Sequence record: NC_050154.1
Reading direction: 5' to 3' (one strand)
Length of the DNA stretch: 64,000 bases
Source of the DNA: Escherichia phage D6
Shown: piece after piece, positions 5,598 through 41,085 of the stretch
How the letters are laid out: every line of letters begins with the position of its first letter
Position numbering within the stretch: position 1 is the first letter of the stretch
Made by a program: the position numbers and the translations under genes
Notes under the pieces: generated by a model
Told to the model about the DNA's origin: nothing
The model's database searches: none
The model's input: only the letters and a program-made list of their open reading frames with translations

Positions 5598-6553
5598 ATC
5601 TTGAGCAAACCGTAGAATTAGCCGCAGGAGCATTGCAGAAAAACCAGAACGGTGCAGATATTCCGAATAAAGATAAATTCATACAAAACACAGGGGCCTG
5701 TCGTGCATTTAGCGGTCAGACTGATATCGATGGTTCACAAGGTGAATGGTCGACAGTTGCATTTATCTCGTGGCTGGAGAATAACGGAGCTTTCCGACAT
5801 CCATACTGGATGTGTAAAGGGTCATGGTCCTATGCCAGAAACAGGGTTATTACGGATACCGGTTGTGGAAATATCTGCCTTGCCGGAGCCGTGATTGAGG
5901 TTATGGGAACCCGCGGCGCAATGACCATACGCGTTACCACGCCGAGCACGTCCAGCGGTGGCGGAATCACTAACGCTCAATTCACTTATATTAATCATGG
6001 TGATGCTTACGCTCCTGGCTGGCGACGAGACTACAACACGAAAAACCAGCAGCCTGCATTTGCTTTAGGGCAAACAGGACGCAGGGTCGCAAATGATAAA
6101 GCTGTTGGCTGGAACTGGAATAGCGGCGTTTATGATGCAGATATCAGTGGCGCATCGACATTAATCCTCCACTTTAATATGAATGCGGGGAGTTGCCCTG
6201 CTGTACAGTTCCGCGTGAATTACAGAAATGGCGGTATCTTTTATCGTTCAGCGCGTGATGGTTATGGCTTTGAAGCTAACTGGTCAGAGTTTTACACCAC
6301 AACACGCAAACCCTCTGCGGGAGATGTTGGTGCATATACGCAGGCAGAATGTAACTCAAGGTTTATTACAGGTATTCGCCTTGGCGGTCTGTCATCTGTT
6401 CAGACATGGAATGGTCCTGGCTGGTCTGACAGGTCAGGTTATGTCGTTACTGGTTCAGTTAACGGAAACCGTGATGAATTAATTGATACAACTCAGGCAA
6501 GGCCAATTCAGTATTGCATTAATGGAACGTGGTATAACGCGGGGAGTATTTAA
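5033..6553 (+). CDS. alternative tail-fiber variable C-terminal cassette (Sv'-type), silent in this orientation
   Basis: N-terminal ~190 aa equal the shared repeat, C-terminus diverges; no RBS or promoter of its own. Confidence 0.75.
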   Translation: MSTANTWSARQTFNGGITGALIGNADTATKLKTAININGVRFDGSADININTLVSRGRVTALGANAQGTSGIQLYEAYNNGYPSPYGNVLHLKGATAAGEGELFIGWSVSSGDHAPVHIRSRRDIDSANWSEWAQVYTSKDSVPGVNAKGNQDTSGNAATATKLQTACTINGVSFDGSKNIELTAEDLNLEQTVELAAGALQKNQNGADIPNKDKFIQNTGACRAFSGQTDIDGSQGEWSTVAFISWLENNGAFRHPYWMCKGSWSYARNRVITDTGCGNICLAGAVIEVMGTRGAMTIRVTTPSTSSGGGITNAQFTYINHGDAYAPGWRRDYNTKNQQPAFALGQTGRRVANDKAVGWNWNSGVYDADISGASTLILHFNMNAGSCPAVQFRVNYRNGGIFYRSARDGYGFEANWSEFYTTTRKPSAGDVGAYTQAECNSRFITGIRLGGLSSVQTWNGPGWSDRSGYVVTGSVNGNRDELIDTTQARPIQYCINGTWYNAGSI

Positions 6554-6555
6554 TT

Positions 6556-7089
6556 ATGATGCACTTAAAAAATATTACTGCTGGCAACCCTAAAACAAAA
6601 GAGCAATACCAGCTAACAAAGCAATTTAACATCAAATGGCTTTATTCAGATGATGGAAAAAACTGGTATGAGGAACAAAAGAATTTCCGGCCAGACACTT
6701 TGAAAATGGTCTATGACCATAACGGCGTTATTATTTGTATTGAAAAGGATGTTTCAGCAATTAATCCGGAAGGCGCAAGCGTCGTTGAATTACCTGATAT
6801 TACAGCAAATCGCCGGGCTGATATTTCGGGTAAATGGATGTTCAAAGATGGCGTAGTGATAAAGCGAACTTATACCGAGGAGGAACAGAGGCAGCAGGCA
6901 GAGAATGAAAAGCAAAGCCTGTTGCAACTTGTCAGGGATAAAACCCAGCTATGGGACTCACAGCTACGGCTGGGTATCATTTCCGACGAGAATAAACAAA
7001 AATTAACCGAGTGGATGCTCTATGCGCAGAAGGTCGAATCCACAGACACCTCCAGCCTGCCAGTAACGTTTCCAGAACAACCAGAATGA
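6556..7089 (+). CDS. tail fiber assembly chaperone, alternative copy (U-type)
   Basis: 177 aa, paralogous to the 176-aa ORF at 7118..7648 ([22 protein letters not shown]...ITANRRAD). Confidence 0.8.
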   Translation: MMHLKNITAGNPKTKEQYQLTKQFNIKWLYSDDGKNWYEEQKNFRPDTLKMVYDHNGVIICIEKDVSAINPEGASVVELPDITANRRADISGKWMFKDGVVIKRTYTEEEQRQQAENEKQSLLQLVRDKTQLWDSQLRLGIISDENKQKLTEWMLYAQKVESTDTSSLPVTFPEQPE

Positions 7090-7093
7090 AACA

Positions 7094-7110
7094 AGGCCCG
7101 CTATCGGGCC
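7094..7110. terminator. bidirectional hairpin between the two convergent chaperone genes
   Basis: GGCCCGCTATCGGGCC followed by a T-run. Confidence 0.6.
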
Positions 7111-7117
7111 TTAATTT

Positions 7118-7648
7118 TTATTCAGGCTTTTGTGGCCATTCAGGATTTGCCGTATCCACACGGCTGACCAGAACACTGTAGCGTTCCCATGACTCCAGTC
7201 GTGCGCGTTCCTCATCCGTCGCCATATTCAGTCTGACAGCGCGTTCCAGTGGCTGAATAACGTTTTCTGCTTCGGAAAGTAACGCGGCCTTTTGTGATTC
7301 GGCCTGTTGTTGTTGCTCGTCTGCCGTATAAATCCGTTTAACCACAGCTCCGTCCTTAAACATCCACTTCCCTGAATCATCGGCACGACGATTGGCTGTT
7401 ATATCTGGAATCTCAACGACGCTAAAGCCTTCGGGATTAAGCGTTGAGGCATCTTTGGTTATGGCAACAATAATATTATTTTCGTCGTATACAATCTTTA
7501 TGGTGTCGTCCTGAAAGTTATTTACTTCTTCATACCAGTTTTTACCGTCTTCGGACCATAACCAGATAACATCAAAATTCTTTGTTAGCTGATATTGTTC
7601 TTTCGTTTTAGGATTTCCAGACTTAATATTTTTTAAATGCTGCATCAT
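7118..7648 (-). CDS. tail fiber assembly chaperone (U'-type), expressed orientation
   Basis: 176 aa directly downstream of the tail fiber gene; paralog of 6556..7089. Confidence 0.8.
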
Positions 7649-10474
7649 TTACACCTGTGCGACGTTATACCATGTGCCATTGATGTATTTTTGTATTGGC
7701 CTGAAGATGGCTTCATCATCGCCATCTACTTCACCAATGATTCTTAATCCGGTAATTGCGTGTCCGGCTTTTTCATAACGACCACCACGCGCCATCAATT
7801 GAACAACACGTGTGCCAAGTCGGACATCTCTCACATAGCGTGAGTCAAAATTGCCATAATTGCCGGGAATAACTTGCGCACCACAAAGCCAGTTACCGTT
7901 ATTATCCATGTACGCCTGACCATCGGTGCCATTGGCTGTCCTTGAGTTATTAATCATGTAGATGCCAAATTGCTTGTTCCCCAGTCCACCTATCATGAAC
8001 TTTCGGTCGGCGTGATTCTGGCGAAGTAACGCCTGAGCGCTATCAGTGTTAACTATATTTTTCCCAAAGATAGCGTTGTTATCGCGCATCTGAATCCACA
8101 TACCATTACTGCTGTTAATAGCAAAACGGTCTGAAAGTGTCTCCCCTGAAACATTAAGACCACGTCCCATCGAAACAGCGCCAGTAGCGTTATTAATCCA
8201 TAATGGCCTTAATCCGTTATAAGTCCCCATGTTGTCACCGGAGTTTGTCAACATGAAGTATGTATTTGAACCATCATTACGAATAAAGAATCCGTAATTA
8301 CCATAAGCAATACGTAGGCCGTTTGCTGATTTTGATATGACTTCGCCATTTACAATGGCATTGACAAGAACATACAAAGCATCCCATTTAAGATTCATCA
8401 GGTCTTTTGTTGTGGTACTTTGTTTGCTTCTCCATTTGAAATATTCATTGCCGTTGTCGCCTGTCTCAAACCACATGTATGAATCAGTATCGCTGTCGGC
8501 ATCATTTTTAAAACCAATCTTCGCCCAGTCAGTATTCCGAATCCAGGCAAGGATTGAGTCGTTTTCAAAAGTAAGTCCACCGGACAAGGTATCGCCTGTC
8601 TTTTGAACCGCGTTATCAGCCTTGTTTACCGTTTCCTGTAGATTTAAATCTTCCGCCGTTAGCTCAATATTTTTAGAACCGTCAAACGAGACGCCGTTGA
8701 TAGTACATGCTATCTGCAATTTGGTCGCTGTAGCCGCATTACCAGAGGTGTCCTGATTCCCTTTGGCATTGACGCCGGGAACTGAATCTTTTGACGTATA
8801 GATCTGTGCCCACTCGGACCATGCCGCAGCAGTGCTATCTCTTTTGGATCGAATGAAAGCAGGTGCATGAGCGCCATTTGTGCCACTCCAGCCAATGAAT
8901 AACTCACCTTCGCCAGCAGCGGTGGCACCTTTAAGGTGAAGCACATTGCCATAGGGGGAAGGGTAGCCATTGTTGTATGCCTCATACATCTGCAATCCAG
9001 TAGCAGCACCTTGCGTTGTACCGGTAAGCGCAGTAACGCGTCCTCTAGACGTAATTGTTGGTATCGAAATGTTCGTAGAACCATCGAACCTGACGCCATT
9101 AATGTTTATGGCTGTTTTTAATTTCGTCGCGGTATCGGCGTTCCCTGTCAGCGCCCCGGTGATCCCGCCGTTGAAAGTCTGGCGTGCACTCCACGTGTTA
9201 GCCGTGCTCAACAGGGGGATCTTTTCACCGCTGGTACCGAGTTCTCTTAAACCAAGGTATTGGATAACGGCCAGTGTGCTTGTTTTAGCCAGAATATCGC
9301 GACCGACTGACGTTAAATCAGTCTGCGCTACCGTATCCTTACCGGTGAAATAAGGCAGTTTGTTTGCACCAGTCGCAAGGCCAGCGAGCGCGGTTAAAGT
9401 TGCATCCAGAGGCTGTTTGCCTGCCAGCGCATTTGTCATTGTTGTCGCAAAGTTCGGGTCATTACCAAGTGCTGCGGCAAGCTCATTCAGGGTATCAAGA
9501 GCTTCTGGTGATGAACCAACCAATGCGGATATGGCAGCTCTTACATAAGCGGTCGTAGCAATCTGCGTGTTATTCGTACCCTGTGCAGCGGTAGGCGCAG
9601 TAGGTATTCCCGTTAATGCAGGACTTGCTAAAGGAGCTTTAAGAGCCAGAGCATTGTTGATAGTTGTGCTGAAATTCGGGTCGTTATTGATCGCAGCCGC
9701 TATTTCTTTCAGCGTGTCCATCGTTCCCGGAGCACCATTGATAAGCGCATTTATAGCAGCATAGACAAAGGCCGCATTTGCGATCTGTGTGTTGTTTGTA
9801 CCGGGTTCAGGTGTCGGCGAAGTCGGCGTACCTGACAGATGCGGACTATCGAGCGGAGCTTTTGTATCAACCAAATCATGGAGAGTTTTGACAGCCAGAG
9901 GTGTAGCCGCTTTTCTTTCTTCTGTACTGCTTATTTCATTAGAGAATTCGACACCAACAGCACGGTTAACCCGGTATTTAAGCACAATCATTTCTTTAGT
10001 CACAGCCGTTGCGCCGTTAGGCACGATAACTCGACATAATTCAATTTGATTCTGCCCAATAGTATTGTCCGTACGCGCGTAAATTCTTGCAGCACTGACA
10101 GAAGATGCGCTATCTACCTGTGTCGTTTTTACACCATGTTCAAAATTGGCTTCCAGCACAATAATGTTGGTAGCCCCAGCCTTTACCGAGACAGTCACAT
10201 CTTCTATTTGCTGAACGGATATCTGAACATTATTTACATCTACTGAAGCAGCCCCTTTACCTTCTGAGTTTTCAGAAGTTATACGAACACTCAACCCTGT
10301 GCCGGGAACTGGTTCAAATCCACAGTAAAAGCCAGGCAAAACAATATTTTTAAGTTTTCTGTTAAGAGCCGAACTACTATAGAGTTCGAAATATTGAACA
10401 TCAGCAAGCAAAGGCTGTGAGACACCAGAGGATAGTGTCATTATGTTGTTCGTTTTATCAGCCCCCATAATCAA
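7649..10474 (-). CDS. tail fiber protein S (constant N-terminal part fused to the currently selected variable part)
   Basis: 941 aa; Gly/Ala/Thr-rich repeats; contains the inverted-repeat segment and the cix site mid-gene. Confidence 0.9.
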   Translation of the reverse strand: MIMGADKTNNIMTLSSGVSQPLLADVQYFELYSSSALNRKLKNIVLPGFYCGFEPVPGTGLSVRITSENSEGKGAASVDVNNVQISVQQIEDVTVSVKAGATNIIVLEANFEHGVKTTQVDSASSVSAARIYARTDNTIGQNQIELCRVIVPNGATAVTKEMIVLKYRVNRAVGVEFSNEISSTEERKAATPLAVKTLHDLVDTKAPLDSPHLSGTPTSPTPEPGTNNTQIANAAFVYAAINALINGAPGTMDTLKEIAAAINNDPNFSTTINNALALKAPLASPALTGIPTAPTAAQGTNNTQIATTAYVRAAISALVGSSPEALDTLNELAAALGNDPNFATTMTNALAGKQPLDATLTALAGLATGANKLPYFTGKDTVAQTDLTSVGRDILAKTSTLAVIQYLGLRELGTSGEKIPLLSTANTWSARQTFNGGITGALTGNADTATKLKTAININGVRFDGSTNISIPTITSRGRVTALTGTTQGAATGLQMYEAYNNGYPSPYGNVLHLKGATAAGEGELFIGWSGTNGAHAPAFIRSKRDSTAAAWSEWAQIYTSKDSVPGVNAKGNQDTSGNAATATKLQIACTINGVSFDGSKNIELTAEDLNLQETVNKADNAVQKTGDTLSGGLTFENDSILAWIRNTDWAKIGFKNDADSDTDSYMWFETGDNGNEYFKWRSKQSTTTKDLMNLKWDALYVLVNAIVNGEVISKSANGLRIAYGNYGFFIRNDGSNTYFMLTNSGDNMGTYNGLRPLWINNATGAVSMGRGLNVSGETLSDRFAINSSNGMWIQMRDNNAIFGKNIVNTDSAQALLRQNHADRKFMIGGLGNKQFGIYMINNSRTANGTDGQAYMDNNGNWLCGAQVIPGNYGNFDSRYVRDVRLGTRVVQLMARGGRYEKAGHAITGLRIIGEVDGDDEAIFRPIQKYINGTWYNVAQV
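8641..9250. repeat. ~0.6 kb inverted repeat, right copy
   Basis: Reverse complement of 4997..5597. Confidence 0.8.
9242..9267. other. cix-type crossover site, right, inside the tail fiber gene
   Basis: TTCTCTTAAACCAAGGTATTGGATAA; shares a half-site with the left site. Confidence 0.7.
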
Positions 10475-13674: not shown

Positions 13675-16600
13675 TTAATCCTCAAGCAGAGCATCCAGCG
13701 ACGGGTCATTAATAGTTGTGCTAGCACGTGGTCGCGGTTGCGGCTGCGATGTTTTGACAACCTTATCCGGATCGCCTTTTGTATTGTTCTTGTTCACATT
13801 CAGAAGATCGTTCAGGATAGAGCAGATGTTATCCAGCGCCTTCAACATAGCAGGATCGTTATTTATAGTGTCAGTAGTTAATGGTTGTCTTATTCCGCTT
13901 CGTGCGAGATCTGTTACAGTAGGAAGCTGTGGTGGCATAGCAAGAAAAGGTTCTTGCACGGCTGACGCAGAGCCAAATATGGCATTATTGGCTTCGTTTG
14001 ATATACCTCTAATGCTATCTGCGGTTTGTTGAATACCATTATTCAGCCAACTACCGGCGCTCCTGGTAAGCGGGCTAATAGCCCTAGCAATTGTTGAGTT
14101 CTGCCCAGTAGCCTGATAAACCAAATCATTAACAATGCCAGTGCCATCTACCCCACCAATAAGTCGTGAAACGTTATCGCCAATTGCAGGTAACACAGCA
14201 GAGCTAATACGTTTCAGACCTGTTAATGACGAGTCAAACAAAGAGCCAAGCACCCCCTTATCTTCACCATCAATTACCTTGTATCCATTGTCATAAACTG
14301 GAATCCCCCTTGAGTTTACAGGGATTTTTTCACTCTCACTTGCCGAAGAAACACCGGAAAGAAGATCCACTGAAGGCATATCGCGTTCAGCTTTTGGTCT
14401 TTTTTGTAAAGCGTCTCTTATATCAGTTACCTGGCTTGCTTTTTGAAATCCAAAAGATTTACCGGTTAAGCTGGATATCTTTTCAGTAAGAGCCTGATCC
14501 ATTCCTTTCGCTTTTTCGGAAAGCGAAGATATAGAACCAAACGAAGTCGCCGACGCAAAATCCTTAATCAGGCCAAGGCTTGTACCAGCAAGGCTGGTAG
14601 CCGCACCTCCAAATAAATTACCTACCCCGCTGTCATTTATAGCGATTAATCTCTCAAGCAGACTTGATGGAGAGCCAGTATTAACATCAACGTTCTCTGG
14701 ATTAATCGGTTGCGATTGATTGCCTGTTTTTTGTGGCTTTTTGACTGCCTGGGCATATTGTGCAACCTCAATTGGCTGTTGTGTTGCTGTCGGAACGGCA
14801 TTCAAAACTGGTTGAGCTGGAGATTTTCCATTAACATATTTTATCTTGCGACCAACACTATATTGCGAATCGCGGGCAATTAGCTGACCACCATTTTCTT
14901 TCTGAATTTTATTAATCCGCGCCAATGTTTCGTCAGAGAATTGTCCCTCCCATCGACCAGTATTTGTGTTAAATGCCCCAAGAGCATTCTTTATGAACTC
15001 ATTGTTAACCGCCGGGTTTCCACCTTCTTTCGTCGCTATTGCACGAACTAATTGCGTCATAACCTCTGGGTTGCTGACGTCTATTTTTTCATTAGGCGAG
15101 ACGCCAAGATATTTGCTGACGTTATCAATATATTGATTAGTATTGTTCTCCTTTGGGGGTGCCCATTTGGAAATAATACTGGATACCGTCTGTAGCTTCT
15201 GATACCCAGCAGCGGCGCTGGTGCCGTTGTAATAGCTTGACACCTGGTTTGCCAGCGCCCTGATCCCTTCTTCAGGCGTGTTAAATCGCGCAAAACGTTG
15301 TTCACCTTTTGCATTTGGTGCTTCCAGCGTCGCCCCTTCCTGATTAGCGAAAACAAGGTTGCCGAGATTATTATTCCGGTAATTGCGGTTTTTGGCGTTG
15401 CTGCCACCAATATTCAGATCCGCTGCAATGGTGTTGCTGGTAGGGGCATTAAATTCAGCCGGGGAAGTATACCCGTGCTCACCAACACCATCTTCACCAT
15501 CACGCCCGCCTTGTAGCTGCTCACCTAAAGAATGAATCGCATCGACAGTTTTTTTGGTGCCGTCTTCAACAGCTTTTTTTACTTGTTTTGTGTTTTCGTC
15601 AGTGGATAAAAATGTATCCTTAAGGCTACCAAAAACAGATTTTGTGATATCTACCGCGCCGTTAACACCACGAGCAATATCTCCGGTATCAAAATTCTGA
15701 AGTTTTTCACCTGCTCTTTCAAATCCTAGCGCAGAAATTCCTTTCCCTATCAAGTTTGTTGCGCCCGACACCAAGCCCCCCATATCGAGCACATTAGCTG
15801 TTGCGTAAGCCGTTTTTTGCTGTTCGGATACAGCATCATCGTCACTTAAACCAAAGGCTGCCTTTTGCGCCTCTGTATCTGTGTAACCATCTATGGCGTC
15901 ATATCCAGCCATTGCCAGCGAACCGATGATAGGGACCGCTCTTGCCGCAGTGGATGCTGCTGATTTAACTCCTATTTTTGCAGCACTTTTGAGGGCTACA
16001 GATTCAGTTTTTTTCTTTGCAATGGCTTCGCCGGTTTTAATGGTGGCATCTTCAGCCACAACACCAGCTGACTTCACGGCCTTAGCAGTATTTTTTGTTT
16101 CCTTTGCAATCCCCTTTGATGTATCGCTGATAGTGCTTACATCTTTGGGTTTGCTGATCTCATTTTTAACTACTTTTGCTGCTCCGACACCAGTGCCAGC
16201 TGCAGCGCTACCGGCAGCAACTTTTTCGCCAACGGAGAGTGCTTTTTTCCCAAGATTGCGGCCTTTCCTTTTCGATTTATTCCGTTTATTTTTTCCCGTT
16301 TGATCACCAATATTGATTTTATTTCTTCTGCTTGCTCGATTTTTCCAGAGATCACTTAAGCCGAACTTATTTCCAGAAGACACTGATTTCCGAAGCTTAA
16401 CTATCTCGTCAGAAACATTTTCCAGACCATCAATTATTTTGTTGTCATTGGTCTGAAGGATTTTGGTTTGCTCTTCTACTGCTTGTGCGGATTTTGTCTC
16501 AACAGCGTTATTGAACGCTTTTGCAGATGTTGCTTTTTGAGAATTCACCGCCGCCGGATAAGTAATTACTGGTGATATCGCTTTCGAGGTTGATGTTTCT

Positions 16601-17457
16601 TTTTTCCCCTTTTCTACCCATTCTTTAAGAGATTCTGCTTTACCTGTGATCTCTTTAGTTATGTCGTACATGCCTCGAGCCGCCATCCATAACGGCCCAC
16701 CAGCACCGACACCAGCTGCATTTGTTAAAGACTCTTCACTGGAAGACTGATTGCCATCTACCCCCATAATGGAACCTAGCTTTCTGAGAAAGCCAGCTTG
16801 TAATTTTGCGTCGGCTTTACGTGCGTTCTGCAATTCTTTTTTTCTGGCTATATCCTCATTGCTTTTTTGGGATACAAAACGTCCATTACTATCCCGCAGC
16901 GGGCCTTTTAGACTTTGGGGGGATTGTGGTTCAAGAGGGGCTGAATTAGCCGCTACCGGTATAAAACCGTCCGATTTTCGGATGGTCTGACGTGATTGCA
17001 CGGAGCGAACACTTTCTGGTGTGTTCGTTGCAACGATAGCGCGGTCCACGGTTTGGTTTATCGGTGCCCTTTCCTTTTTAGCAGGGAGACGTTTTTTATA
17101 TGGGTTAGTTTGGGCATCTCTAACGCTATCAGATGTACTTTGCTCGTAGTCTTTACGCCTGCGTGATAGTCTGTTGCTAACTCTGCCTTGCTTTTCGTCC
17201 TGTTGAGTTATGGTGCCTACCCCAGAAAGAATGGCGTCTTTTACCTCAGCAAGAGCTTTAAGTTCGTTTGTGCTCGCCTCCTGAATAGCGTCAATTATTG
17301 CGATACGGTCTTTATTCTCTTTCAAAATAACCTCTCTTTTACCAGCGCGATCAACGTTTCCCGGCTTGAGCTTTGTATTTTTCTTCCAGGGCTTTTGACA
17401 TATGGAGTGCTCGCCATTGCGGTAATTGTTCAACGTCGCTAACGGGCTGATATCCAT
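13675..17457 (-). CDS. large structural/injection protein, Sit-like (tape-measure-like)
   Basis: 1260 aa, low-complexity Ala/Gly/Ser/Lys-rich, with a globular domain near residues 630-760. Confidence 0.65.
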   Translation of the reverse strand: MDISPLATLNNYRNGEHSICQKPWKKNTKLKPGNVDRAGKREVILKENKDRIAIIDAIQEASTNELKALAEVKDAILSGVGTITQQDEKQGRVSNRLSRRRKDYEQSTSDSVRDAQTNPYKKRLPAKKERAPINQTVDRAIVATNTPESVRSVQSRQTIRKSDGFIPVAANSAPLEPQSPQSLKGPLRDSNGRFVSQKSNEDIARKKELQNARKADAKLQAGFLRKLGSIMGVDGNQSSSEESLTNAAGVGAGGPLWMAARGMYDITKEITGKAESLKEWVEKGKKETSTSKAISPVITYPAAVNSQKATSAKAFNNAVETKSAQAVEEQTKILQTNDNKIIDGLENVSDEIVKLRKSVSSGNKFGLSDLWKNRASRRNKINIGDQTGKNKRNKSKRKGRNLGKKALSVGEKVAAGSAAAGTGVGAAKVVKNEISKPKDVSTISDTSKGIAKETKNTAKAVKSAGVVAEDATIKTGEAIAKKKTESVALKSAAKIGVKSAASTAARAVPIIGSLAMAGYDAIDGYTDTEAQKAAFGLSDDDAVSEQQKTAYATANVLDMGGLVSGATNLIGKGISALGFERAGEKLQNFDTGDIARGVNGAVDITKSVFGSLKDTFLSTDENTKQVKKAVEDGTKKTVDAIHSLGEQLQGGRDGEDGVGEHGYTSPAEFNAPTSNTIAADLNIGGSNAKNRNYRNNNLGNLVFANQEGATLEAPNAKGEQRFARFNTPEEGIRALANQVSSYYNGTSAAAGYQKLQTVSSIISKWAPPKENNTNQYIDNVSKYLGVSPNEKIDVSNPEVMTQLVRAIATKEGGNPAVNNEFIKNALGAFNTNTGRWEGQFSDETLARINKIQKENGGQLIARDSQYSVGRKIKYVNGKSPAQPVLNAVPTATQQPIEVAQYAQAVKKPQKTGNQSQPINPENVDVNTGSPSSLLERLIAINDSGVGNLFGGAATSLAGTSLGLIKDFASATSFGSISSLSEKAKGMDQALTEKISSLTGKSFGFQKASQVTDIRDALQKRPKAERDMPSVDLLSGVSSASESEKIPVNSRGIPVYDNGYKVIDGEDKGVLGSLFDSSLTGLKRISSAVLPAIGDNVSRLIGGVDGTGIVNDLVYQATGQNSTIARAISPLTRSAGSWLNNGIQQTADSIRGISNEANNAIFGSASAVQEPFLAMPPQLPTVTDLARSGIRQPLTTDTINNDPAMLKALDNICSILNDLLNVNKNNTKGDPDKVVKTSQPQPRPRASTTINDPSLDALLED

Positions 17458-29789: not shown

Positions 29790-29965
29790 ATATTTTTGTA
29801 TTCTCAATTCGCTCTCAAATTTATCTCACTATCAGACCATCATTCGGTGGGTGATTAAGATATTCTCAAAATAAACTCAACAAGCGCCCTTTTTTATCTC
29901 GTTTGGTGTGGATTTTTGGGGGCTTCTCTTTTAAAATTACATTTTGATTCTCAAATGTGTCTCAG
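29790..29965 (+). repeat. parC-like centromere candidate, 5-7 copies of (A/T)TTCTCAAA
   Basis: GTATTCTCAATT, GCTCTCAAATTT, ATATTCTCAAAAT, GATTCTCAAATG, GTCTCAGAAG in the 190 bp before parM. Confidence 0.4.
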
Positions 29966-29980
29966 AAGTGGAGCAAGAAG

Positions 29981-30937
29981 ATGCGCATTTTTATCGATGA
30001 TGGTTCAACCAATATCAAAATGCTGTGGGAGCACGACGGGGAAACTCGCACTCACATCAGCCCTAACAGCTTTAAGCGCGGATGGTCAGCAACATTTGGT
30101 GCGGGCAAGCCGTTTAACTATGTCATTGACGACGAAAAGTATTCATACGACTTGATATCGCCAGATGTTCTGCCGACGAATAATGTGGAATGGCAATACA
30201 GCCCGCTTAACGTCCTGGCTGTTCACCATGCCCTGCTGACAAGCGGTATTGAGCCGCAGGAAGTAGAAATTGTGGTCACGCTGCCTCTGGCAGAGTTTTA
30301 CGACGACGACGCGCAATACAATCTCGATAACATCGAGCGCAAGAAAGCCAGTCTTATGCGCCCCGTCACGCTGAATAAAGGCAATGTATTCACTATTAAG
30401 AAAGTTACGGTACGCCCGGAGTCTATCCCGGCGGGAATTAGCCTGTGCGACAATCTGAACCCTGCCCACTCTGTTCTTATCGTCGATTTGGGTGGAACTA
30501 CCCTTGATGTTTCAATGGTCGCTGGACAAATGACGGCAGTTTCCCGTGTTTTTGGCGATTCGAATCTTGGTGTATCACTGGTCACCAGGGAAGTAAGGCA
30601 AGCACTTGCAAGGGCCAATACCGAAACGTCAAATTACAATGTTGATCAGCTCATTATTAACCGCCACGATGAAGATTATCTGAACGACAATATCAATGAC
30701 CCATCAGCGATTGGTGATGTGAAAAAGGCCATTGCCGCAAGCATTGACCGTCTGCGTACCCGCGTTCTTGATGTGATTGGCGACTTTAAAGGATATACGC
30801 ATGTCATGGTGATCGGTGGTGGCGCACCGCTGGTGGCAGATGCAATTCGCGAGCAAGTTAATATTCGTGATGACCGTTTCTTCGTGGCGGATGACCCGCA
30901 ACTTGCTCTTGTTCATGGCCTGAAAGCAATCGGTTAA
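29981..30937 (+). CDS. parM: actin-like partition ATPase ParM/StbA
   Basis: MRIFIDDGSTNIK...ISPNSFK...AVHHALLTSG...LIVDLGGTTLDVS; start moved to the RBS-supported ATG. Confidence 0.9.
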   Translation: MRIFIDDGSTNIKMLWEHDGETRTHISPNSFKRGWSATFGAGKPFNYVIDDEKYSYDLISPDVLPTNNVEWQYSPLNVLAVHHALLTSGIEPQEVEIVVTLPLAEFYDDDAQYNLDNIERKKASLMRPVTLNKGNVFTIKKVTVRPESIPAGISLCDNLNPAHSVLIVDLGGTTLDVSMVAGQMTAVSRVFGDSNLGVSLVTREVRQALARANTETSNYNVDQLIINRHDEDYLNDNINDPSAIGDVKKAIAASIDRLRTRVLDVIGDFKGYTHVMVIGGGAPLVADAIREQVNIRDDRFFVADDPQLALVHGLKAIG

Positions 30938-30943
30938 CGAGGT

Positions 30944-31288
30944 ATGTCCATGTCTCAGGAACGTAAGAAAGTGATGATTTATCTTCGCCCAGAGGCTTAT
31001 GCCAATGAAAAGGCGGCGAGCGAGAAGATAAAAAAACATAGCGATATGGCAAGAACTGCATTGTTGGCAGGGCTTGCGCTGGGAGAAGTCGATAGCAGGC
31101 TTCCAGGATTACTGGCTTCCCTGCTGACCGAAGACAATAACCCGGAGCTGATCCGAAAAATGCTGGCATCCTTCTTGGAACTACCAGCTGCGGTTGAGGA
31201 GCGCCCTGCCTCCATTGAGCCAGTGAAGGAGCAATTTGTTGCCAAAAGCGCGTCGGCGCGCAATCTGGCTGACTCTCTACCTGATTGA
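30944..31288 (+). CDS. parR: ParR/StbB-like centromere-binding protein
   Basis: 114 aa immediately after parM; N-terminal RHH-like region, acidic C-terminus. Confidence 0.6.
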   Translation: MSMSQERKKVMIYLRPEAYANEKAASEKIKKHSDMARTALLAGLALGEVDSRLPGLLASLLTEDNNPELIRKMLASFLELPAAVEERPASIEPVKEQFVAKSASARNLADSLPD

Positions 31289-31420: not shown

Positions 31421-31575
31421 CTTTCGTGTTAAATAGGATGCAATATAAGGTGTATTTGGTCTGATTGATGTTATACTTTGCCAAACATTCATGACTCCAT
31501 TATAGAGCCTGTCCCGCATCAAAAAGGCTCTTATCTGGAACCGTTTTGATACCAAAATCACACCGAGGAACGGAT

Positions 31576-32217
31576 ATGATTATATTGGTAGTCAGCCAAA
31601 AAGGTGGCTGTGGAAAATCAACCACAAGCGTAAACATCTGTGCGGAGCTTGCCCGCGAAAATAAGGATGTAGTGTTACTAGATGCAGACAAGCAAGGAAC
31701 AGCTGCCCGCTGGGCAGCTGACCGTAACACGGCAGAGGTTTCTCCTGTAATTCATTGTGTCCAGAAGTTTGGTAATATTCGAGAAACACTTCTCGATCTG
31801 GATAAGCGTTATGAATTTGTAGTTGTTGATACAGCCGGGCGCGATAGCAAAGAGATGCGTACAGGCATAACCGCTGCAGATATTGTGTTGGTCCCATTCA
31901 GACCATCTCAACCAGATTTAGACACGCTGGCACACTTTGTTGAAGTGTTTGAAGAGGCTTTGGACCTGATGCCTAATCCTAGCATCAAGGCGTTCGCAGT
32001 CTTAACAATGGCCCCATCCAATCCGGTTGTGAATGAAACCAATGAGGCCAAAGAGTACCTGGCTGAATATCCGCAACTGAAGTTGCTGAAAACCATCATT
32101 CGTGATCGTAAGGTTTACCGCGATTGCATGGCTGAAGGGAAGGGCGTTGTTGAGATGGACAACGGGAAAGCTAAAGGTGAAATCCAGATGTTGGTTAAGG
32201 AGTTATTAAGTGATTAA
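31576..32217 (+). CDS. small Walker-type partition ATPase (ParA/ParF-like, type Ib)
   Basis: deviant Walker A VVSQKGGCGKST; about 213 aa; GAGGAA RBS. Confidence 0.85.
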   Translation: MIILVVSQKGGCGKSTTSVNICAELARENKDVVLLDADKQGTAARWAADRNTAEVSPVIHCVQKFGNIRETLLDLDKRYEFVVVDTAGRDSKEMRTGITAADIVLVPFRPSQPDLDTLAHFVEVFEEALDLMPNPSIKAFAVLTMAPSNPVVNETNEAKEYLAEYPQLKLLKTIIRDRKVYRDCMAEGKGVVEMDNGKAKGEIQMLVKELLSD

Positions 32218-32497
32218 GCCTCGTAAATCGGTAAAAGCCCCCGAAGTAAAAGACCCTGATCTTGAACGCCGAATTGAGGATTTTGCCAGTAAGGCTGATT
32301 TGGTGCCGGGTGAGCAACCAGAAGACAACAAAGTGCTCGATAAGGACGCTCCACGTGATTTTAAATCTATTCGTGTTGGTTTCAATGAATACGAGTACCA
32401 AGTACTTGATGCGTTAAGTAAAAAGCATAATCGCAGCAAATTGAATATGATCCGCCATGCTATCCTCATGTTAGCGGAGTCTGAGGAAGCAAAATAA
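32210..32497 (+). CDS. ParG-like RHH centromere-binding protein
   Basis: 95 aa overlapping the ParA stop; C-terminal RHH-like FKSIRVGFNEYEYQVLDALSKKHNRSKLNMIRHAILMLAE. Confidence 0.55.
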   Translation: MIKPRKSVKAPEVKDPDLERRIEDFASKADLVPGEQPEDNKVLDKDAPRDFKSIRVGFNEYEYQVLDALSKKHNRSKLNMIRHAILMLAESEEAK

Positions 32498-32539
32498 AGT
32501 CTTTCAGGTTGGTTTTAGAACTTAAAAAGTCTTGAACCA

Positions 32540-32620
32540 AAGGTGCACCAATACACCACTAATTTGGTGCACCTTTACATCCTTTTTGGTTCCAATTGTG
32601 TACCATTTGTCATTAATTTA
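32540..32620. repeat. 13-bp perfect inverted repeat AAAGGTGCACCAA plus a GGTTCCAATT box
   Basis: Palindrome with 13-bp spacer; matches the boxes upstream of the parA-like gene. Confidence 0.5.
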
Positions 32621-32765
32621 CTTATGCGCAAAAGTGGGCTTCATGAAAAAGCTCATTATTGAAATAACGATAGAAAGCAATTTCTAATCAACTAGTGGTT
32701 GTCAGCCTATTCGGCTTATAAGATCATACGCTGTTATACGTTGTTTACGCTTTGAGGAATCCACA

Positions 32766-34427
32766 ATGAGTGAGGCAGAAGCCCGCCCGACTAACTTTAT
32801 TCGTCAGATCATCGATGAAGATCTGGCCAGTGGTAAGCACACCACAGTACATACCCGTTTCCCGCCGGAACCGAATGGCTATCTGCATATTGGTCATGCG
32901 AAATCTATCTGCCTGAACTTCGGGATCGCCCAGGACTATAAAGGCCAGTGCAACCTGCGTTTCGACGACACTAACCCGGTAAAAGAAGATATCGAGTACG
33001 TCGAGTCGATTAAAAACGACGTTGAATGGTTAGGTTTTCACTGGTCTGGCAACATCCGTTACTCCTCCGATTATTTTGACAAACTCCATGCCTATGCTGT
33101 TGAACTGATCAACAAAGGCCTGGCGTATGTTGACGAACTGACGCCGGAACAGATCCGCGAATACCGCGGCACCCTGACGCAGCCGGGTAAAAATAGCCCG
33201 TACCGCGATCGCAGCGTTGAAGAGAACCTGGCGCTGTTCGAAAAAATGCGTGCCGGTGGTTTTGAAGAAGGTAAAGCCTGCCTGCGTGCGAAAATCGATA
33301 TGGCTTCGCCGTTTATCGTGATGCGCGACCCGGTGCTGTACCGCATTAAGTTTGCTGAACACCACCAGACTGGCAACAAGTGGTGCATCTACCCGATGTA
33401 CGACTTCACCCACTGCATCAGCGATGCGCTGGAAGGTATTACGCACTCTCTGTGTACGCTTGAGTTCCAGGACAACCGTCGTCTGTATGACTGGGTACTG
33501 GACAACATCACCATTCCTGTTCACCCGCGCCAGTACGAATTCTCGCGCCTGAATCTGGAATACACTGTGATGTCCAAGCGTAAGCTGAACCTGCTGGTGA
33601 CCGACAAGCACGTTGAAGGCTGGGATGACCCGCGTATGCCGACCATTTCCGGTCTGCGTCGTCGTGGTTACACTGCTGCTTCTATTCGTGAGTTCTGCAA
33701 ACGCATCGGCGTGACCAAGCAGGACAACACCATTGAGATGGCGTCGTTGGAATCCTGCATCCGTGAAGATCTCAACGAAAATGCGCCGCGCGCAATGGCG
33801 GTTATCGATCCGGTGAAACTGGTTATCGAAAACTATCAGGGCGAAGGCGAAATGGTCACCATGCCGAACCATCCGAACAAACCGGAAATGGGGAGCCGTC
33901 AGGTGCCGTTTAGCGGTGAGATTTGGATTGATCGCGCCGATTTCCGCGAAGAAGCTAACAAGCAGTACAAACGTCTGGTGCTGGGTAAAGAAGTGCGTCT
34001 GCGTAATGCTTATGTGATTAAGGCAGAACGCGTCGAGAAAGATGCCGAAGGTAATATCACCACCATCTTCTGTACTTATGACGCCGATACCTTAAGCAAA
34101 GATCCGGCAGATGGTCGTAAAGTCAAAGGTGTTATTCACTGGGTGAGCGCGGCACATGCGCAGCCGGTTGAAATCCGTTTGTATGACCGTCTGTTCAGCG
34201 TGCCGAACCCAGGTGCTGCGGATGATTTCCTGTCGGTGATTAACCCGGAATCGCTGGTGATCAAACAGGGCTTTGCTGAACCGTCGCTGAAAGATGCGGT
34301 TGCGGGTAAAGCATTCCAGTTTGAGCGTGAAGGTTACTTCTGCCTCGACAGCCGCCATTCTACGGCGGAAAAACCGGTATTTAACCGCACCGTTGGGCTG
34401 CGTGATACCTGGGCGAAGTTAGGTTAA
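32766..34427 (+). CDS. glnS: glutaminyl-tRNA synthetase, host-like
   Basis: 553 aa with class I HIGH motif and VMSKR (KMSKS) motif; full-length match to E. coli GlnRS as I recall it; the upstream leader ends in TTTACGCTTTGAGGAATCCACA as in the E. coli glnS leader. Confidence 0.97.
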
Positions 34428-34451
34428 TAGGTATTTCGCCACATAAAAAAG

Positions 34452-34477
34452 TAAACGCCGCTACTGCGGCGTTTTTT
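34452..34477 (+). terminator. glnS intrinsic terminator, overlapping the last codons of the convergent methyltransferase gene
   Basis: AACGCCGCTACTGCGGCGTT followed by TTTTTAC. Confidence 0.8.
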
Positions 34478-35477
34478 ACTTCATTATTGCAATTATATCG
34501 TTAGCAACTACACGTGTTGACGCCTTGCAGGACACCGACCGTCTGGCTGCCATATGATGTACTTTAAACCCGTTTCCTTCATATAGTTCACGGATGTTTG
34601 GCGCACCACTATTTGTTATCACTACCTTAGCGCCGCGCTGGTGGGCTTCCACCAATAGAGATACCAGCCGTTTCTGTTCGTCGAAACGGAAGCTATTTCC
34701 TGAATAACTGGTAAACCCTTCTGTATCCGGCAGCGGTTCATACGGCGGATCGCAAAAAATCACATCGCCTTCACCAGCCGCCTCGATGACGCCAGCAAAG
34801 TCACCTGATACAAAGGACGTGTTTTTGAGTACGTCATCAGCCAAAAATGCCTCCATCTCTGCATGTGGGAAGTAGGGCGCTTTGTATTTGCCATACCCCA
34901 CGTTGAACTCGCCATTTTGGTTGTACCGCGTTACGCCATTAAAACAGTGCCGATTAAGGTACAAAAAGGCGGCAGCATGATGTAGCTGGTCATACTTTCC
35001 TCTGTTAAATGCCTCACGCACTTCGAGGTAAGCGTCAGCGTTGTTGTAATTTTGGAAAAAACTATATGACAGCGTGACGAGCGAATGTCCTTCTCGCTGC
35101 AATGTCTGATAGAAGTTAATCAGGTCACCGTTAATATCATTAAGCAGGTTGTGGCGAAATCCTGCATTCGTAAATACGGAACCGCCACCAACGAATGGTT
35201 CTATTAACCGCTTACCGTGTGGTAGATGCTCAAGCACTGTAGGCAATTCTGAGAATTTACCACCTACCCATTTGAATATCGGACGCTCATATTCATCCGG
35301 AGTCCGAATGGTGCGCATATAGCTAATTTCAGCCATCGTATCCTGTTTTTCTATGGCTATGCTTGCTATAGATTTACTCATAGAGCACCCCCTTATTCGC
35401 TTCGAAAACTGCCTTTGCGAATCCATGTGGAGTAGCACTTCGAAAATTAGCCCTGTCAGGCCCTGGTGGCGCGGCAT
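34476..35477 (-). CDS. Dam-family N6-adenine DNA methyltransferase domain protein (C-terminal half of a dmt-like locus)
   Basis: FKWVGGK AdoMet motif and DPPY catalytic motif. Confidence 0.85.
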   Translation of the reverse strand: MPRHQGLTGLIFEVLLHMDSQRQFSKRIRGCSMSKSIASIAIEKQDTMAEISYMRTIRTPDEYERPIFKWVGGKFSELPTVLEHLPHGKRLIEPFVGGGSVFTNAGFRHNLLNDINGDLINFYQTLQREGHSLVTLSYSFFQNYNNADAYLEVREAFNRGKYDQLHHAAAFLYLNRHCFNGVTRYNQNGEFNVGYGKYKAPYFPHAEMEAFLADDVLKNTSFVSGDFAGVIEAAGEGDVIFCDPPYEPLPDTEGFTSYSGNSFRFDEQKRLVSLLVEAHQRGAKVVITNSGAPNIRELYEGNGFKVHHMAARRSVSCKASTRVVANDIIAIMK

Positions 35478-36054
35478 GGATTCTGTTATCTGGCTTGCCT
35501 AATGATTCGTCCATTAGGGCATCAGGCATGACAAAGCCCTGGCCGCTCCAGAGGCATGTTTTTTTGGTGTAGTTATCTTCCTGACAATATGCAGTGAAGA
35601 AGTAAGGGTGAAAGATGTGATCTGGCTTACGCCAGAATGTCGATATTTTGCTGACCGGATTTTCAATCATGTACGGACAACCGATCATCTTTGCAATGTC
35701 ATAACACTGCCAGACAACCTGCATTGCTTTGAACTGGAAAACCGGATCTTTATTAGCCTTGTCCGAAAACCAGCGCGCGCCGGAAACAGCCAGGTCAGTA
35801 CACGGTGGGAACCCGGCCAGAAACACGATGCGCTGCAAATTCTTACGGAGAAAAGCGTATACTTCATCGCTATCGATGATCGCACTAATACGCGTCAGAA
35901 CGGCACCTGATTGCATCCGCTCGTCACTGGTCGATAAGTGCTGTGGATCGACGATAGCGGCATCGACACCGTATTCCAGCCAGGGGGCAACCATTGCCCC
36001 CGTAAAATCACAAAGACTCACAACAAGCGGTCGGTTATTATCGTTCTGCTTCAC
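35374..36054 (-). CDS. C5-cytosine methyltransferase-like domain ORF (N-terminal half of the dmt-like locus); overlaps the Dam ORF in another frame
   Basis: GFPPC (PC motif) and IENP (ENV-like) motifs; start moved to a GTG with GGAGG RBS because the track start would overlap hrdC by ~90 nt. Confidence 0.5.
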
Positions 36055-36943
36055 CGCCAATGGCCTCCACCAGCGCGTTAAACAGTGCAGATAATTCGCC
36101 CGTAAAGAGCACGAAATCAGCATCAAATCGTTGTGCTACATCCTCCCGGTCGATATCGTCGTTCTGGTCATAGAGATCATCACAGAATGTCAGGGCTTTG
36201 ATACTCATATCATCGTTGACTCTGAACGACGCGCGGTCCATCCAGTTAATTGCAACGGTCGTAGCTACTTTCCCCGCCTCAATGTGAGACATAATCTCGT
36301 CGGACTGTAGATCAACTTTGTTGCAGCGAACGGCACCACCATTATCGAGCAGACCCTTTAATGTGGCGTCTTCACCTGCTGTAAATCCGGCAGGGAAGCC
36401 GTTTTTAAACCACTCGGTCATTGTAATTTCCAGCGGTTCGCGTGGTGTGAATGGAATGACAGGCAGGCTGCCGAGCGATTTTCGCAATAAAGCCAGCTGG
36501 TCCTCTGCCTTTTTGGCGCTGCTTGCCTCAACGAATACCAGATGGTTTCTGCGGTCGATCAGGATTTTGGCGAGTGATTTTCTCGTGAAAGCACGAGGAA
36601 GAAGAGAGTGAAGCACTTCATCCTTCAGCGAATCTTTTTCGGTCTTCTTCAGCTTTCTGTCTTGCTCTTCTTCAAGTGTCAGGATTTTTTTCTGTAACTC
36701 TTCTTTGAGCACTTGAGAAGGTAGGATTTTTTCCTCTCGTTTATGCTGTATCAGAAGAAAACCCTGGTATTCATGGGTGAGGTTGTCACCAAGAACGGAG
36801 GTCCAACCAGCTTTAGCCATATCCTGAGAACCGCATGGGGTAAACACAAACTTGCTAAGGGCTGCATTTACTTCTGCAGTATCCCAGCTAACTTCGCGTG
36901 AAAGACGATAGATGAAGATATTTTTGAAAGCGACTGATCTCAT
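36038..36943 (-). CDS. hrdC: RdgC-family recombination-associated protein (P1 hrdC-like)
   Basis: Near-colinear with E. coli RdgC: [91 protein letters not shown]. Confidence 0.9.
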
Positions 36944-40354: not shown

Positions 40355-40657
40355 ATGACCAAAAAAATTAACATAAAGGATTTCAGGGATGCGTGGCTTG
40401 ATGATTTTTTTGAATTTTCAACACCACATAGAAAGATACCTCCTGATATTCATATGACATTGTCACGGAAGTTGGACATTATCAATGCCGCAACTACCTG
40501 TAAGGATTTAAGATCACCACCAGGTAATCGGTATGAGGAACTGTCAGGGAAGCTAAATGGCTATTCATCAGTAAGGGTGAATAAGCAATATAGGTTAATT
40601 TTTAAGTGGGTTAACGGAAAGGCCGAGGACTTGTATCTCGACCCTCACAAATACTAA
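40355..40657 (+). CDS. higB: HigB-type toxin (RelE/ParE superfamily, plasmid killer)
   Basis: 100 aa, C-terminal YRLIFKWVNGKAEDLYLDPHKY; toxin-first order with an HTH partner. Confidence 0.75.
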   Translation: MTKKINIKDFRDAWLDDFFEFSTPHRKIPPDIHMTLSRKLDIINAATTCKDLRSPPGNRYEELSGKLNGYSSVRVNKQYRLIFKWVNGKAEDLYLDPHKY

Positions 40658-40727
40658 AACAGATACCCGGTTACGGACCGGGTTCTGACCAGAGTCCACT
40701 TAATACGCACGCTAGTAAGGGCAAAAA

Positions 40728-41066
40728 ATGAAACAGGCAACCAGAAAACCGACGACCGTAGGTGATATCCTGCTGTACGAATACCTGGAGCCGTTAGAGC
40801 TGAAGATCAACGAGTTAGCAGAAATACTTCATGTTCATCGTAACACCGTAAGTGCTCTTGTTAATAATAATCGTAAGCTAACGATGGATATGGCATATCG
40901 CCTGGCAAAAGCATTCGATACTTCTGTAGATTTTTGGATTAATCTTCAGACCGCAGTAGATCTGTGGGAAGTCGAAAATGATATGCGCGTTCAGGAAGAG
41001 TTAAGTCGTATCAATACTGCTGAAAAATTTATTTCTCAGCGTAACCTGAATAAAAAAGCAGCCTGA
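40728..41066 (+). CDS. higA: HigA antitoxin (XRE HTH)
   Basis: GDILLYEYLEPLELKINELAEILHVHRNTVSALVNNNRKLTMDMAYRLAKAFDTSVDFWINLQ. Confidence 0.8.
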   Translation: MKQATRKPTTVGDILLYEYLEPLELKINELAEILHVHRNTVSALVNNNRKLTMDMAYRLAKAFDTSVDFWINLQTAVDLWEVENDMRVQEELSRINTAEKFISQRNLNKKAA

Positions 41067-41085
41067 TATAGTAAAACACATACAA

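Follow-up and report, generated by a model that had tools for sequence, protein, structure and literature searches.

An old glnS cassette of chromosomal type on a D6-like phage-plasmid, apparently captured once and patched by gene conversion

Why should a phage that is maintained as a plasmid carry a complete copy of an essential translation gene that its host already possesses? The question is raised by a stretch of 64,000 nucleotides from Escherichia phage D6 (NC_050154.1), here called the window and used for all coordinates, in which an intact glnS gene, predicted to encode a glutaminyl-tRNA synthetase (GlnRS), lies between a partition locus and a methylase gene. From the comparisons reported below we consider it reasonably probable that glnS is moron cargo of a D6-like phage-plasmid, which entered the family a single time, has since been patched by gene conversion from host chromosomes, and would be of value to its carriers as extra dosage or as a backup of the host enzyme.

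That D6-like phage-plasmids carry glnS has been known since 2018-2019. A study of pYU39_89 from Salmonella Typhimurium ST213 (PMC6799933, 2019) called the gene a moron and reported it in all D6-like genomes, in a neighbourhood of methylation and partition functions; it credited Gilcrease and Casjens 2018 (Virology 515:203) for the glnS of phage D6 and, taking the cysS gene of plasmid pBT1 as a model, speculated on a contribution to host fitness or plasmid maintenance. The glnS gene of the window does not differ from that described for D6 and pYU39_89, which belong to one family of elements with it, and, since the 7 kb around glnS are 99.9% identical to the published pYU39_89 (CP011430), the finding of the gene is not new. 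Literature searches for functional follow-up of D6-like glnS returned only this 2019 paper. The case for a single old capture, the native terminator, the recurrent conversion and the relatives devoid of glnS are added here and, as far as we found, are not described there.

The coding sequence (CDS) of glnS is an intact, ATG-initiated open reading frame (ORF) of 553 amino acids on the + strand (32766..34427). Its translation scored 1067.9 bits against the NCBIfam equivalog TIGR00440 (cutoff 425.8), covering model positions 1-524 of 524, and contains the Pfam domains PF00749 (aa 28-337), PF03950 (aa 340-439) and PF20974 (aa 456-528), which correspond to the class Ic catalytic domain and to both anticodon-binding β-barrel domains. 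Moreover, it is collinear over its whole length with the solved structures of E. coli GlnRS 1o0b, 1gtr and 1qtq (residues 1-553 against residues 1-553 of 1o0b_A, E=0), and the signature motifs HIGH (aa 41) and VMSKR (aa 268) are kept. Thus, by equivalog, domain, motif and collinearity tests the product is a GlnRS, for which charging of tRNA(Gln) is predicted. Compared with the K-12 enzyme, the protein lacks the terminal Glu and shows 5 substitutions (V97I, Q106K, I112V, L466Q and V552L), none of which is close to HIGH or VMSKR. The initial annotation, which was made from the letters of the sequence, had described a full-length class I GlnRS gene of host type rather than a diverged viral paralog, and on both counts it was correct, the identity to E. 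coli chromosomal glnS being 96.1-97.4% at the nucleotide and ~99% at the amino acid level.

As a separate observation, L466Q (codon 34161-34163) falls in the distal anticodon-binding barrel and is unique to the window, Leu being found in ETEC1706 and in all the other plasmid and chromosomal alleles examined; the three other nearest plasmids have one mismatch each in the stretch around codon 466, which was taken to be the L466Q site.

The gene is preceded by what appears to be its own chromosomal leader. A consensus scan predicted a sigma-70-like promoter on the + strand at 32699..32727 (TTGTCA-17-GATCAT), in which the Dam site GATC (32722..32725) sits within the -10 hexamer, and a Shine-Dalgarno sequence, GAGGAA (32754..32759, + strand), lies 6 nt 5' of the ATG. 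The -35 and -10 hexamers and the ribosome-binding site are identical to those of K-12 glnS, with 3 substitutions in the spacer, as anticipated when the leader was first likened to the chromosomal glnS promoter. The Shine-Dalgarno sequence is the same in every chromosomal and phage-plasmid copy compared, the 29-nt promoter is unchanged in 15 of 17 other copies (pTB423 and p13ZX36-90 have a single spacer substitution each), and the hexamers with their GATC are invariant in all 17. On the left side, similarity to the chromosomal nagE-glnS intergenic region fades gradually: within the junction zone (32640..32698, + strand) it is weak from ~32640 (~60% by eye) and clear from ~32690, in alignments that comprised K-12, seven further E. 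coli chromosomes, E. albertii and Citrobacter.

On the right side, similarity to the E. coli chromosome ends at the final codons (WAKLG* vs WAKVGE*). Homology to E. coli glnS and its flanks thus extends from ~32640-32690 to the last codons of the CDS. The right junction is occupied by a predicted intrinsic terminator at 34453..34479 (stem AAACGCCGC, loop TACT, stem GCGGCGTTT and a T-tract), whose hairpin (34453..34474) has a 9-bp stem and, in a two-strand terminator scan, T runs on both strands. The T run of the + strand reaches into the dam stop codon (34476..34478) of the convergent methylase gene. It had been claimed from the sequence that glnS has its own terminator and that this overlaps the last codons of the methylase gene: the former stands, whereas the overlap comes down to the T run and the stop codon. 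As a run of six A residues (A6) precedes the hairpin on its left, the structure is also readable as a terminator for the convergent dam transcript, and it would therefore now serve both genes.

This terminator has counterparts outside E. coli. MAFFT aligned it to the terminator that relatives without glnS have in this position, as if it were part of the backbone; this possibility was ruled out by the stem AAACGCCGC / GCGGCGTTTTTT, which directly follows chromosomal glnS in Citrobacter and Enterobacter too, and the cassette therefore appears to have brought its own terminator. In E. coli, an apparent repetitive extragenic palindromic (REP)-type insert separates the glnS stop codon from a matching sequence, AAACGCCGCGCTCTG, which was visible in two E. 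coli strains, where the alignment was cut off. Taken together, these comparisons show a cassette of ~1.8 kb that consists of the predicted native glnS promoter, the CDS and the predicted native terminator, and that is of Escherichia-type chromosomal origin. By its own signals, predicted as they are, its deviant GC content (52.3% vs 46.5% for the window) and its patchy presence, the glnS cassette is a moron. Chromosomal glnS itself does not always have the same neighbours: in E. coli SC477 and GN02350 a DeoR/GlpR regulator, and not nagE, is found upstream. With the apparent REP-type insert on the other side, the surroundings of the chromosomal gene thus vary at either end, which may be relevant to the way the cassette was excised.

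The same arrangement recurs throughout the family. About 97 plasmids of PLSDB contain at least 80% of the region, in E. coli, Salmonella and Shigella hosts; 81 plasmid-borne glnS copies were counted among 5,426 complete E. coli genomes; and the plasmid-specific 3' junction is present in 19 viral contigs of IMG/VR. In all 17 other complete copies the flanks align without gaps, with 0-7 mismatches in the 130 nt upstream and 0-3 in the 70 nt downstream. An assembly chimera, a concern raised when the gene was first noticed, is ruled out by these shared junctions in ~97 plasmids, 19 contigs and 17 of 17 copies, and no artefact needs to be invoked.

On the other hand, not every member carries the gene. 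The D6-like RHH (ribbon-helix-helix) segment that lies upstream of glnS was found in 93 complete E. coli genomes, always on a plasmid, and ~12-18 of these carriers (about 13-20%, or ~one in six) appear to be without glnS, at variance with the 'all D6-like genomes' of PMC6799933; plasmids of this kind are pEC361_3, a Shigella dysenteriae plasmid and p1_000837. In the relatives without glnS, a bidirectional terminator, AAAAGCCCC-N4-GGGGCTTTT, abuts the dam stop codon. Since the empty site thus holds a different terminator at the same place, the comparison shows that it is this terminator which the cassette, in all appearance, replaced, in the interval that separates the ParA/RHH operon from the 3' end of dmt, as the methylase locus is called in phage P1.

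How old is the insertion? The initial annotation had proposed a recent capture of a host gene, and this is one part of it that had to be abandoned. The identity among phage-plasmid glnS alleles is 94.5-99.9%, and 94.1-99.1% to eight E. coli chromosomal alleles, which are 97.3-100% identical among themselves. The differences are concentrated in the 5' part of the gene. In the sliding windows that cover CDS nt 226-450, most phage-plasmid alleles differ from the nearest chromosomal allele at 7-17 positions per 150 nt, where chromosomes differ from one another by a maximum of 3-4; elsewhere most of them have 0-5 differences per 150 nt. In the glnS of the window, CDS nt 201-420 are ~8% off from the E. 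coli chromosomal alleles compared, while from ~nt 600 onwards the nearest chromosomal allele is only 0-2 differences per 150 nt away, with 3-5 in a mixed zone before that. A max-chi2 triplet test placed a breakpoint between nt 363 and 366 (p<=0.0005), which divides the gene into a phage-plasmid-specific 5' segment (32766..33128, CDS nt 1-363) and a segment of E. coli chromosomal type (33131..34415, CDS nt 366-1650), both on the + strand, the mixed zone of the latter extending to ~nt 720.

The two segments also have different distributions. Positions 32700..33200 (501 nt) are 90-95% identical to 5,422 of 5,500 E. coli records, and the 78 records that reach at least 95% are essentially all plasmids; for positions 33490..34415 (926 nt), the identity to the chromosomes of O157:H7 and O55:H7 is 99.4%, and 315 records stand at 99% or more. 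The 5' and 3' neighbour-joining trees of glnS are incongruent, and pAPEC201603 is a reverse mosaic, in which the 5' ~720 nt are identical to a chromosomal allele. We therefore read the 3' part of the window gene as gained by gene conversion from a chromosomal allele of K-12/O157 type. Through conversion, the lineage-specific substitutions V97I, Q106K and I112V were lost in pAPEC201603 and p98222.

The allele of pTB423, which we treated as the least converted one, is divergent along its full length. It has 67 sites absent from all eight chromosomal alleles, no close match among E. coli chromosomes, and a synonymous divergence (dS) of 0.29 from K-12, compared with 0.27 between K-12 and E. albertii. 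A donor scan of contigs gave E. albertii and one divergent Escherichia among the matches listed, and no E. fergusonii, E. marmotae, E. ruysiae or Salmonella donor among them. Since all copies share the same junctions, the cassette was presumably acquired once. The simplest reading of these data is one old capture of glnS from an Escherichia-level lineage outside the sampled E. coli, followed by repeated gene conversion. As an alternative, pTB423 itself may be the recombinant, which would still need exchange between chromosome and plasmid because in the trees the remaining alleles fall beside different chromosomal alleles of E. coli. A recent capture from E. coli was rejected in view of the divergent 5' core (at most ~95% identical to ~5,424 E. 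coli chromosomal records), of the shared junctions, which point to a single acquisition, and of the dS of 0.29 of pTB423.

The transfer looks one-way, from the chromosome to the plasmid, because essentially no chromosome carries the plasmid-type 5' core. This bears on the idea that the selected trait is not the enzyme but the 1.7 kb of near-identity as such, as a recombination handle for pairing, integration or exchange with the chromosome. Several exchanges with chromosomal glnS are indeed demonstrable; however, they appear to run in a single direction, mere sequence similarity could do without an ORF, promoter and terminator kept intact under a nonsynonymous to synonymous substitution ratio (dN/dS) of 0.02, and the D6-like RHH segment was found on the chromosome in none of the 5,426 complete E. 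coli genomes. No copy integrated at chromosomal glnS was thus found among these genomes. We regard the handle as the least probable of the explanations considered.

We then asked what the pattern of substitutions says about the plasmid copy. All the 11 alleles of the plasmid and window set are intact (the window, ETEC1706 and nine other plasmid alleles), as are the 7 complete IMG/VR copies, for a total of 18 out of 18 complete copies of good quality. The dN/dS is 0.013-0.033 in comparisons involving phage-plasmids and 0.007-0.012 in pairs of chromosomal Escherichia genes. The intact copies and these ratios argue for a working GlnRS under slightly relaxed but strong constraint.

Such a pattern might also arise if glnS were a nearly neutral hitchhiker, of no benefit to anyone, retained by the toxin-antitoxin and partition systems of the element while its ORF was kept intact through overwriting. 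Chromosomal alleles often convert the plasmid copy, HigBA and two partition systems are present on the element, the gene is missing from some relatives, and PMC6799933 likewise raises the possibility of a selfish element. Against it speaks pTB423, which is divergent throughout and yet differs from K-12 by 89 synonymous and 9 nonsynonymous changes with no frameshift. The same holds for the unconverted 5' core (15 synonymous vs 3 nonsynonymous differences), for the intactness of all 18 copies, some of them in Salmonella, where conversion would be expected to be rarer because the resident glnS is more divergent, and for the invariant promoter hexamers. Conversion from the chromosome adds to the signature of selection but cannot account for the divergent allele of pTB423, and a neutral passenger seems to us quite unlikely.

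Second copies of aminoacyl-tRNA synthetases (aaRS) on mobile elements often give resistance, and the initial annotation had accordingly suggested resistance or immunity, in which a second GlnRS would shield the cell from an inhibitor or toxin directed at this enzyme, by insensitivity or by titration. A doubled dose of glnS could give slight tolerance. A resistance-type duplicate is exemplified by mupA, the mupirocin-resistant IleRS, and resistance alleles of aaRS are, as far as is known, strongly diverged from the housekeeping enzyme. D6-like glnS is like mupA a second aaRS gene on a mobile element; by contrast, the phage-plasmid GlnRS is ~99% identical to the sensitive host enzyme, from which it differs by 3-8 of 553 residues, all conservative and outside HIGH and VMSKR, and it swaps segments with chromosomal alleles. 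Moreover, V97I, Q106K and I112V were lost without consequence in pAPEC201603 and p98222, and no inhibitor biosynthesis or toxin genes flank glnS. The suggestion is therefore not supported, and resistance or immunity appears very unlikely.

We return to the reading preferred at the outset, that of moron cargo with a dosage or backup value. In lysogens, glnS would be transcribed from its own sigma-70 promoter, so that in every carrier an essential enzyme would have two sources, the second kept up independently of the first, and lytic replication of the element would lead to more glnS copies. Control of the plasmid gene by Dam methylation is plausible as well, the GATC being kept in the -10 hexamer with the element's own Dam gene adjoining; on the chromosome, glnS is subject to repression by Dam, which acts via GATC sites in its promoter (Plumbridge and Soll 1987, with RNA-seq confirmation in PMC11741368). 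The most likely value would be that of dosage or backup for the charging of Gln-tRNA(Gln), which could make the element useful or costly to lose, a benefit of the kind put forward for pBT1 cysS and a likelier one than protection from an inhibitor.

Several points weigh against this interpretation. A full-length chromosomal glnS is retained, also in carriers, by 5,425 of the 5,426 complete genomes of E. coli, with no sequence-level sign of replacement by the plasmid copy; the ~13-20% of D6-like plasmids that are without glnS make it dispensable for the element; and Gln, which makes up 3.86% of the amino acids encoded by the 48 largest ORFs, is not over-used, so that there is no special demand for Gln-tRNA, and a special Gln demand of the element as the reason for the gene was ruled out. 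In addition, gene conversion from the chromosome might on its own suffice to preserve a large part of the reading frame, and purifying selection would then look stronger than it is.

Whatever its use, the gene is well suited, as a clean natural case, for studying how an essential chromosomal gene converts its counterpart on a mobile element, and equally for asking whether plasmids are stabilised by essential-gene duplication and for addressing Dam-dependent control of a cargo gene beside the element's own Dam methylase. In practical terms, carrier strains hold two glnS alleles 1-6% apart, and reads from the two copies can therefore be confused.

The surroundings of the cassette identify the carrier. 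Upstream, a ParA-like ATPase (31546..32217, + strand; Pfam AAA_31/CbiA/ParA) overlaps a 95-aa ORF of RHH size (32210..32497, + strand), which gave no Pfam hit, so that the RHH label is unconfirmed; both are annotated in the relative NZ_CP122910.1, and the pair is best taken as a type Ib-like partition operon. The glnS ATG follows the end of the 95-aa ORF by 268 bp. Downstream, the dam stop codon lies 48 bp past the glnS stop, the two genes being convergent. The D12-class methylase Dam (34476..35477, - strand; Pfam MethyltransfD12; 34476..35381 as annotated in relatives) shows 69% identity with the Dam part of P1 Dmt; it overlaps a second ORF (35374..36126, - strand) for which no Pfam or NCBIfam hit was obtained; together the two are the counterpart of the single P1 dmt gene. 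In p13ZX36-90, the dmt counterpart is annotated as one fused gene of 2289 bp, as in P1. RdgC/hrdC follows (36038..36943; Pfam RdgC), with baseplate genes beyond it. The position first assigned to glnS, between ParA/RHH and a dmt-like methylase with phage or plasmid genes within ~300 bp on both sides, is therefore right, the RHH label aside.

Further features place the element among the relatives of P1. Its capsid has 44% identity to P1 gp23. Over the 7 kb that surround glnS, the element matches the E. coli plasmid NZ_CP122910.1 at 100.0%; in this plasmid, tail sheath, capsid, baseplate, tail-fibre, Ref, Icd-like, maturation control and PAAR proteins are annotated together with RdgC/hrdC and a gene 5/6/24 baseplate order of P1 type. 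A RepB-family initiator (rep_cluster_1704) accompanies the ParM/StbB and ParA/RHH systems, and the records of the relatives are circular, ~90 kb and non-mobilizable. A search of a phage collection with the 7 kb glnS region gave no matching record. The capsid and Dam similarities, the identity to pYU39_89 and the annotated gene set therefore uphold the phage-plasmid backbone and the P1/D6-like label of the initial annotation, and the element is by all sequence criteria a D6-like phage-plasmid of ~90 kb, a distant relative of P1.

Some observations concern the neighbourhood rather than glnS. Two unlike partition systems adjoin, an actin-type ParM/StbB pair (29957..31288) upstream of ParA and the ParA/RHH operon (31546..32497). 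The spacer after the latter (32500-32640) is dense in short palindromic motifs; a repeat search found there a perfect 13-nt inverted repeat, AAAGGTGCACCAA / TTGGTGCACCTTT (32539..32576), which belongs to a GGTGCACC / GGTTCC / GTACC motif set 3' of the operon. This is probably a centromere-like site of the backbone and not of the glnS insert. In the relatives without glnS, other variants of the motif (GGTACC, GGTGTC, GGCGCC) occur in the same place together with different RHH alleles, which looks like a centromere co-varying with its binding protein. A HigB/HigA toxin-antitoxin pair, as reported for D6, is located at 40355-41070 (by offset from 30356-31067 of the NZ_CP122910.1 region, L001), and PMC6799933 lists phd-doc also on pYU39_89. 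A structural ORF of 1260 aa is intact in the window (13675-17457, - strand), and NZ_CP122910.1, otherwise nearly identical, has a shorter counterpart (L001 3296-7512) adjoining an IS91-family transposase, so that the two are not one and the same plasmid.

A few records of the wider collection deserve mention. An independent glnS with 86% nucleotide identity was found at 6074-7741 of the region from the 133.6 kb plasmid NZ_CP116349.1 of Enterobacter ludwigii, which is unrelated to the D6-like family; it adjoins two site-specific integrases and a dinQ toxin gene, and suggests that mobile elements have gained glnS more than once. The D6-like plasmid pR17.0776_84k (NZ_CP100729.1) of Salmonella Blockley carries glnS and is conjugative according to MOB-suite (MOBP, MPF_T), unlike the other family members inspected, which were not typed as such; fusion with a conjugative plasmid, as a cointegrate or a hybrid, may explain this. 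Finally, an apparently divergent Salmonella version of glnS at 89% identity, in pSa1423-90k (NZ_MK356557.1), was rejected as a sequencing-error artefact of an evidently uncorrected assembly, with indels of 1-3 nt throughout glnS and its flanks and almost no annotated genes, and this plasmid was left out of all statistics.

The closest comparison for the site itself is P1, in which the gene order is upfC(PAAR) - uhr - hrdC - dmt - trnA - trnT - plp - tciABC - trnI - ban - dbn - 5 - 6 - 24. The genes for tRNA-Asn (trnA) and tRNA-Thr (trnT) lie ~670 bp downstream of dmt and that for tRNA-Ile (trnI) slightly further, in agreement with the tRNA genes that the initial annotation had placed in this neighbourhood of P1. 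In both P1 and the D6-like element, therefore, translation-related cargo is found just 3' of dmt. The two differ in that the P1 tRNAs are within the C1-controlled ban operon and co-directional with dmt, whereas D6-like glnS has a host promoter and is convergent to it; in addition, the dmt operon of the window is inverted relative to the PAAR gene, and its 3' site holds glnS and two partition systems. A tRNA scan of the 64 kb window found no tRNA gene, and the four tRNAs of pYU39_89 are in a separate tRNA/tci region (PMC6799933). Cargo for translation 3' of dmt in both lineages is suggestive, and agrees with that much of the translation-cargo hotspot once proposed for this neighbourhood; a hotspot is not demonstrated, the tRNAs being absent from the window and elsewhere in pYU39_89.

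It is in this context that glnS could be thought of as a booster of translation in the lytic cycle, supplying extra GlnRS mainly for virion production as host gene expression falls, in the manner of the aaRS and tRNA genes of large phages. The genome is that of a P1-type myovirus, complete in its structural modules, tRNA genes are directly downstream of dmt in P1 and number four in pYU39_89, glnS dosage would increase with lytic replication, and on fresh, under-methylated DNA the promoter could be relieved of repression through the GATC of its -10 hexamer. Yet Gln is not enriched in the proteins of the element, the promoter is that of a housekeeping host gene, outside any C1-controlled or late operon, the scan of the window found no tRNA-Gln, and related plasmids exist without glnS. 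We regard such a booster as possible but unlikely. GlnRS homologues of uncultured megaphages (LR745206, LR756502) are phage-borne too; they are only 50-57% identical, and belong to diverged viral lineages.

The known system most similar to the dosage or backup cargo that we favour is cysS of plasmid pBT1, from Salmonella Typhimurium D23580 (Canals et al. 2019, PMC6333337). A role in plasmid maintenance was proposed for this gene, and it was demonstrated experimentally that the plasmid CysS takes over while the chromosomal cysS is down-regulated. In a stricter version of the analogy, glnS would be a maintenance module of the same type: reliance would shift from the chromosomal to the plasmid GlnRS, for instance through the Dam-sensitive promoter beside the element's own Dam/Dmt, and recurrent conversion would keep the enzyme matched to the tRNA(Gln) of each new host. 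The D6-like element has, as far as function can be judged from sequence, one of the things that such maintenance needs, an intact copy of an essential gene with native signals; we nevertheless hold this version as doubtful. If it were true, an essential housekeeping gene would act as a host-adapting addiction device of a transducing phage-plasmid, in an element present in about 1.5% of complete E. coli genomes. In both cases a second copy of an essential aaRS gene resides on a large plasmid; however, pBT1 CysS is 89% identical to the chromosomal gene product (79% at the nucleotide level), whereas D6-like glnS, with its ~99% amino acid identity, recombines with its chromosomal counterpart.

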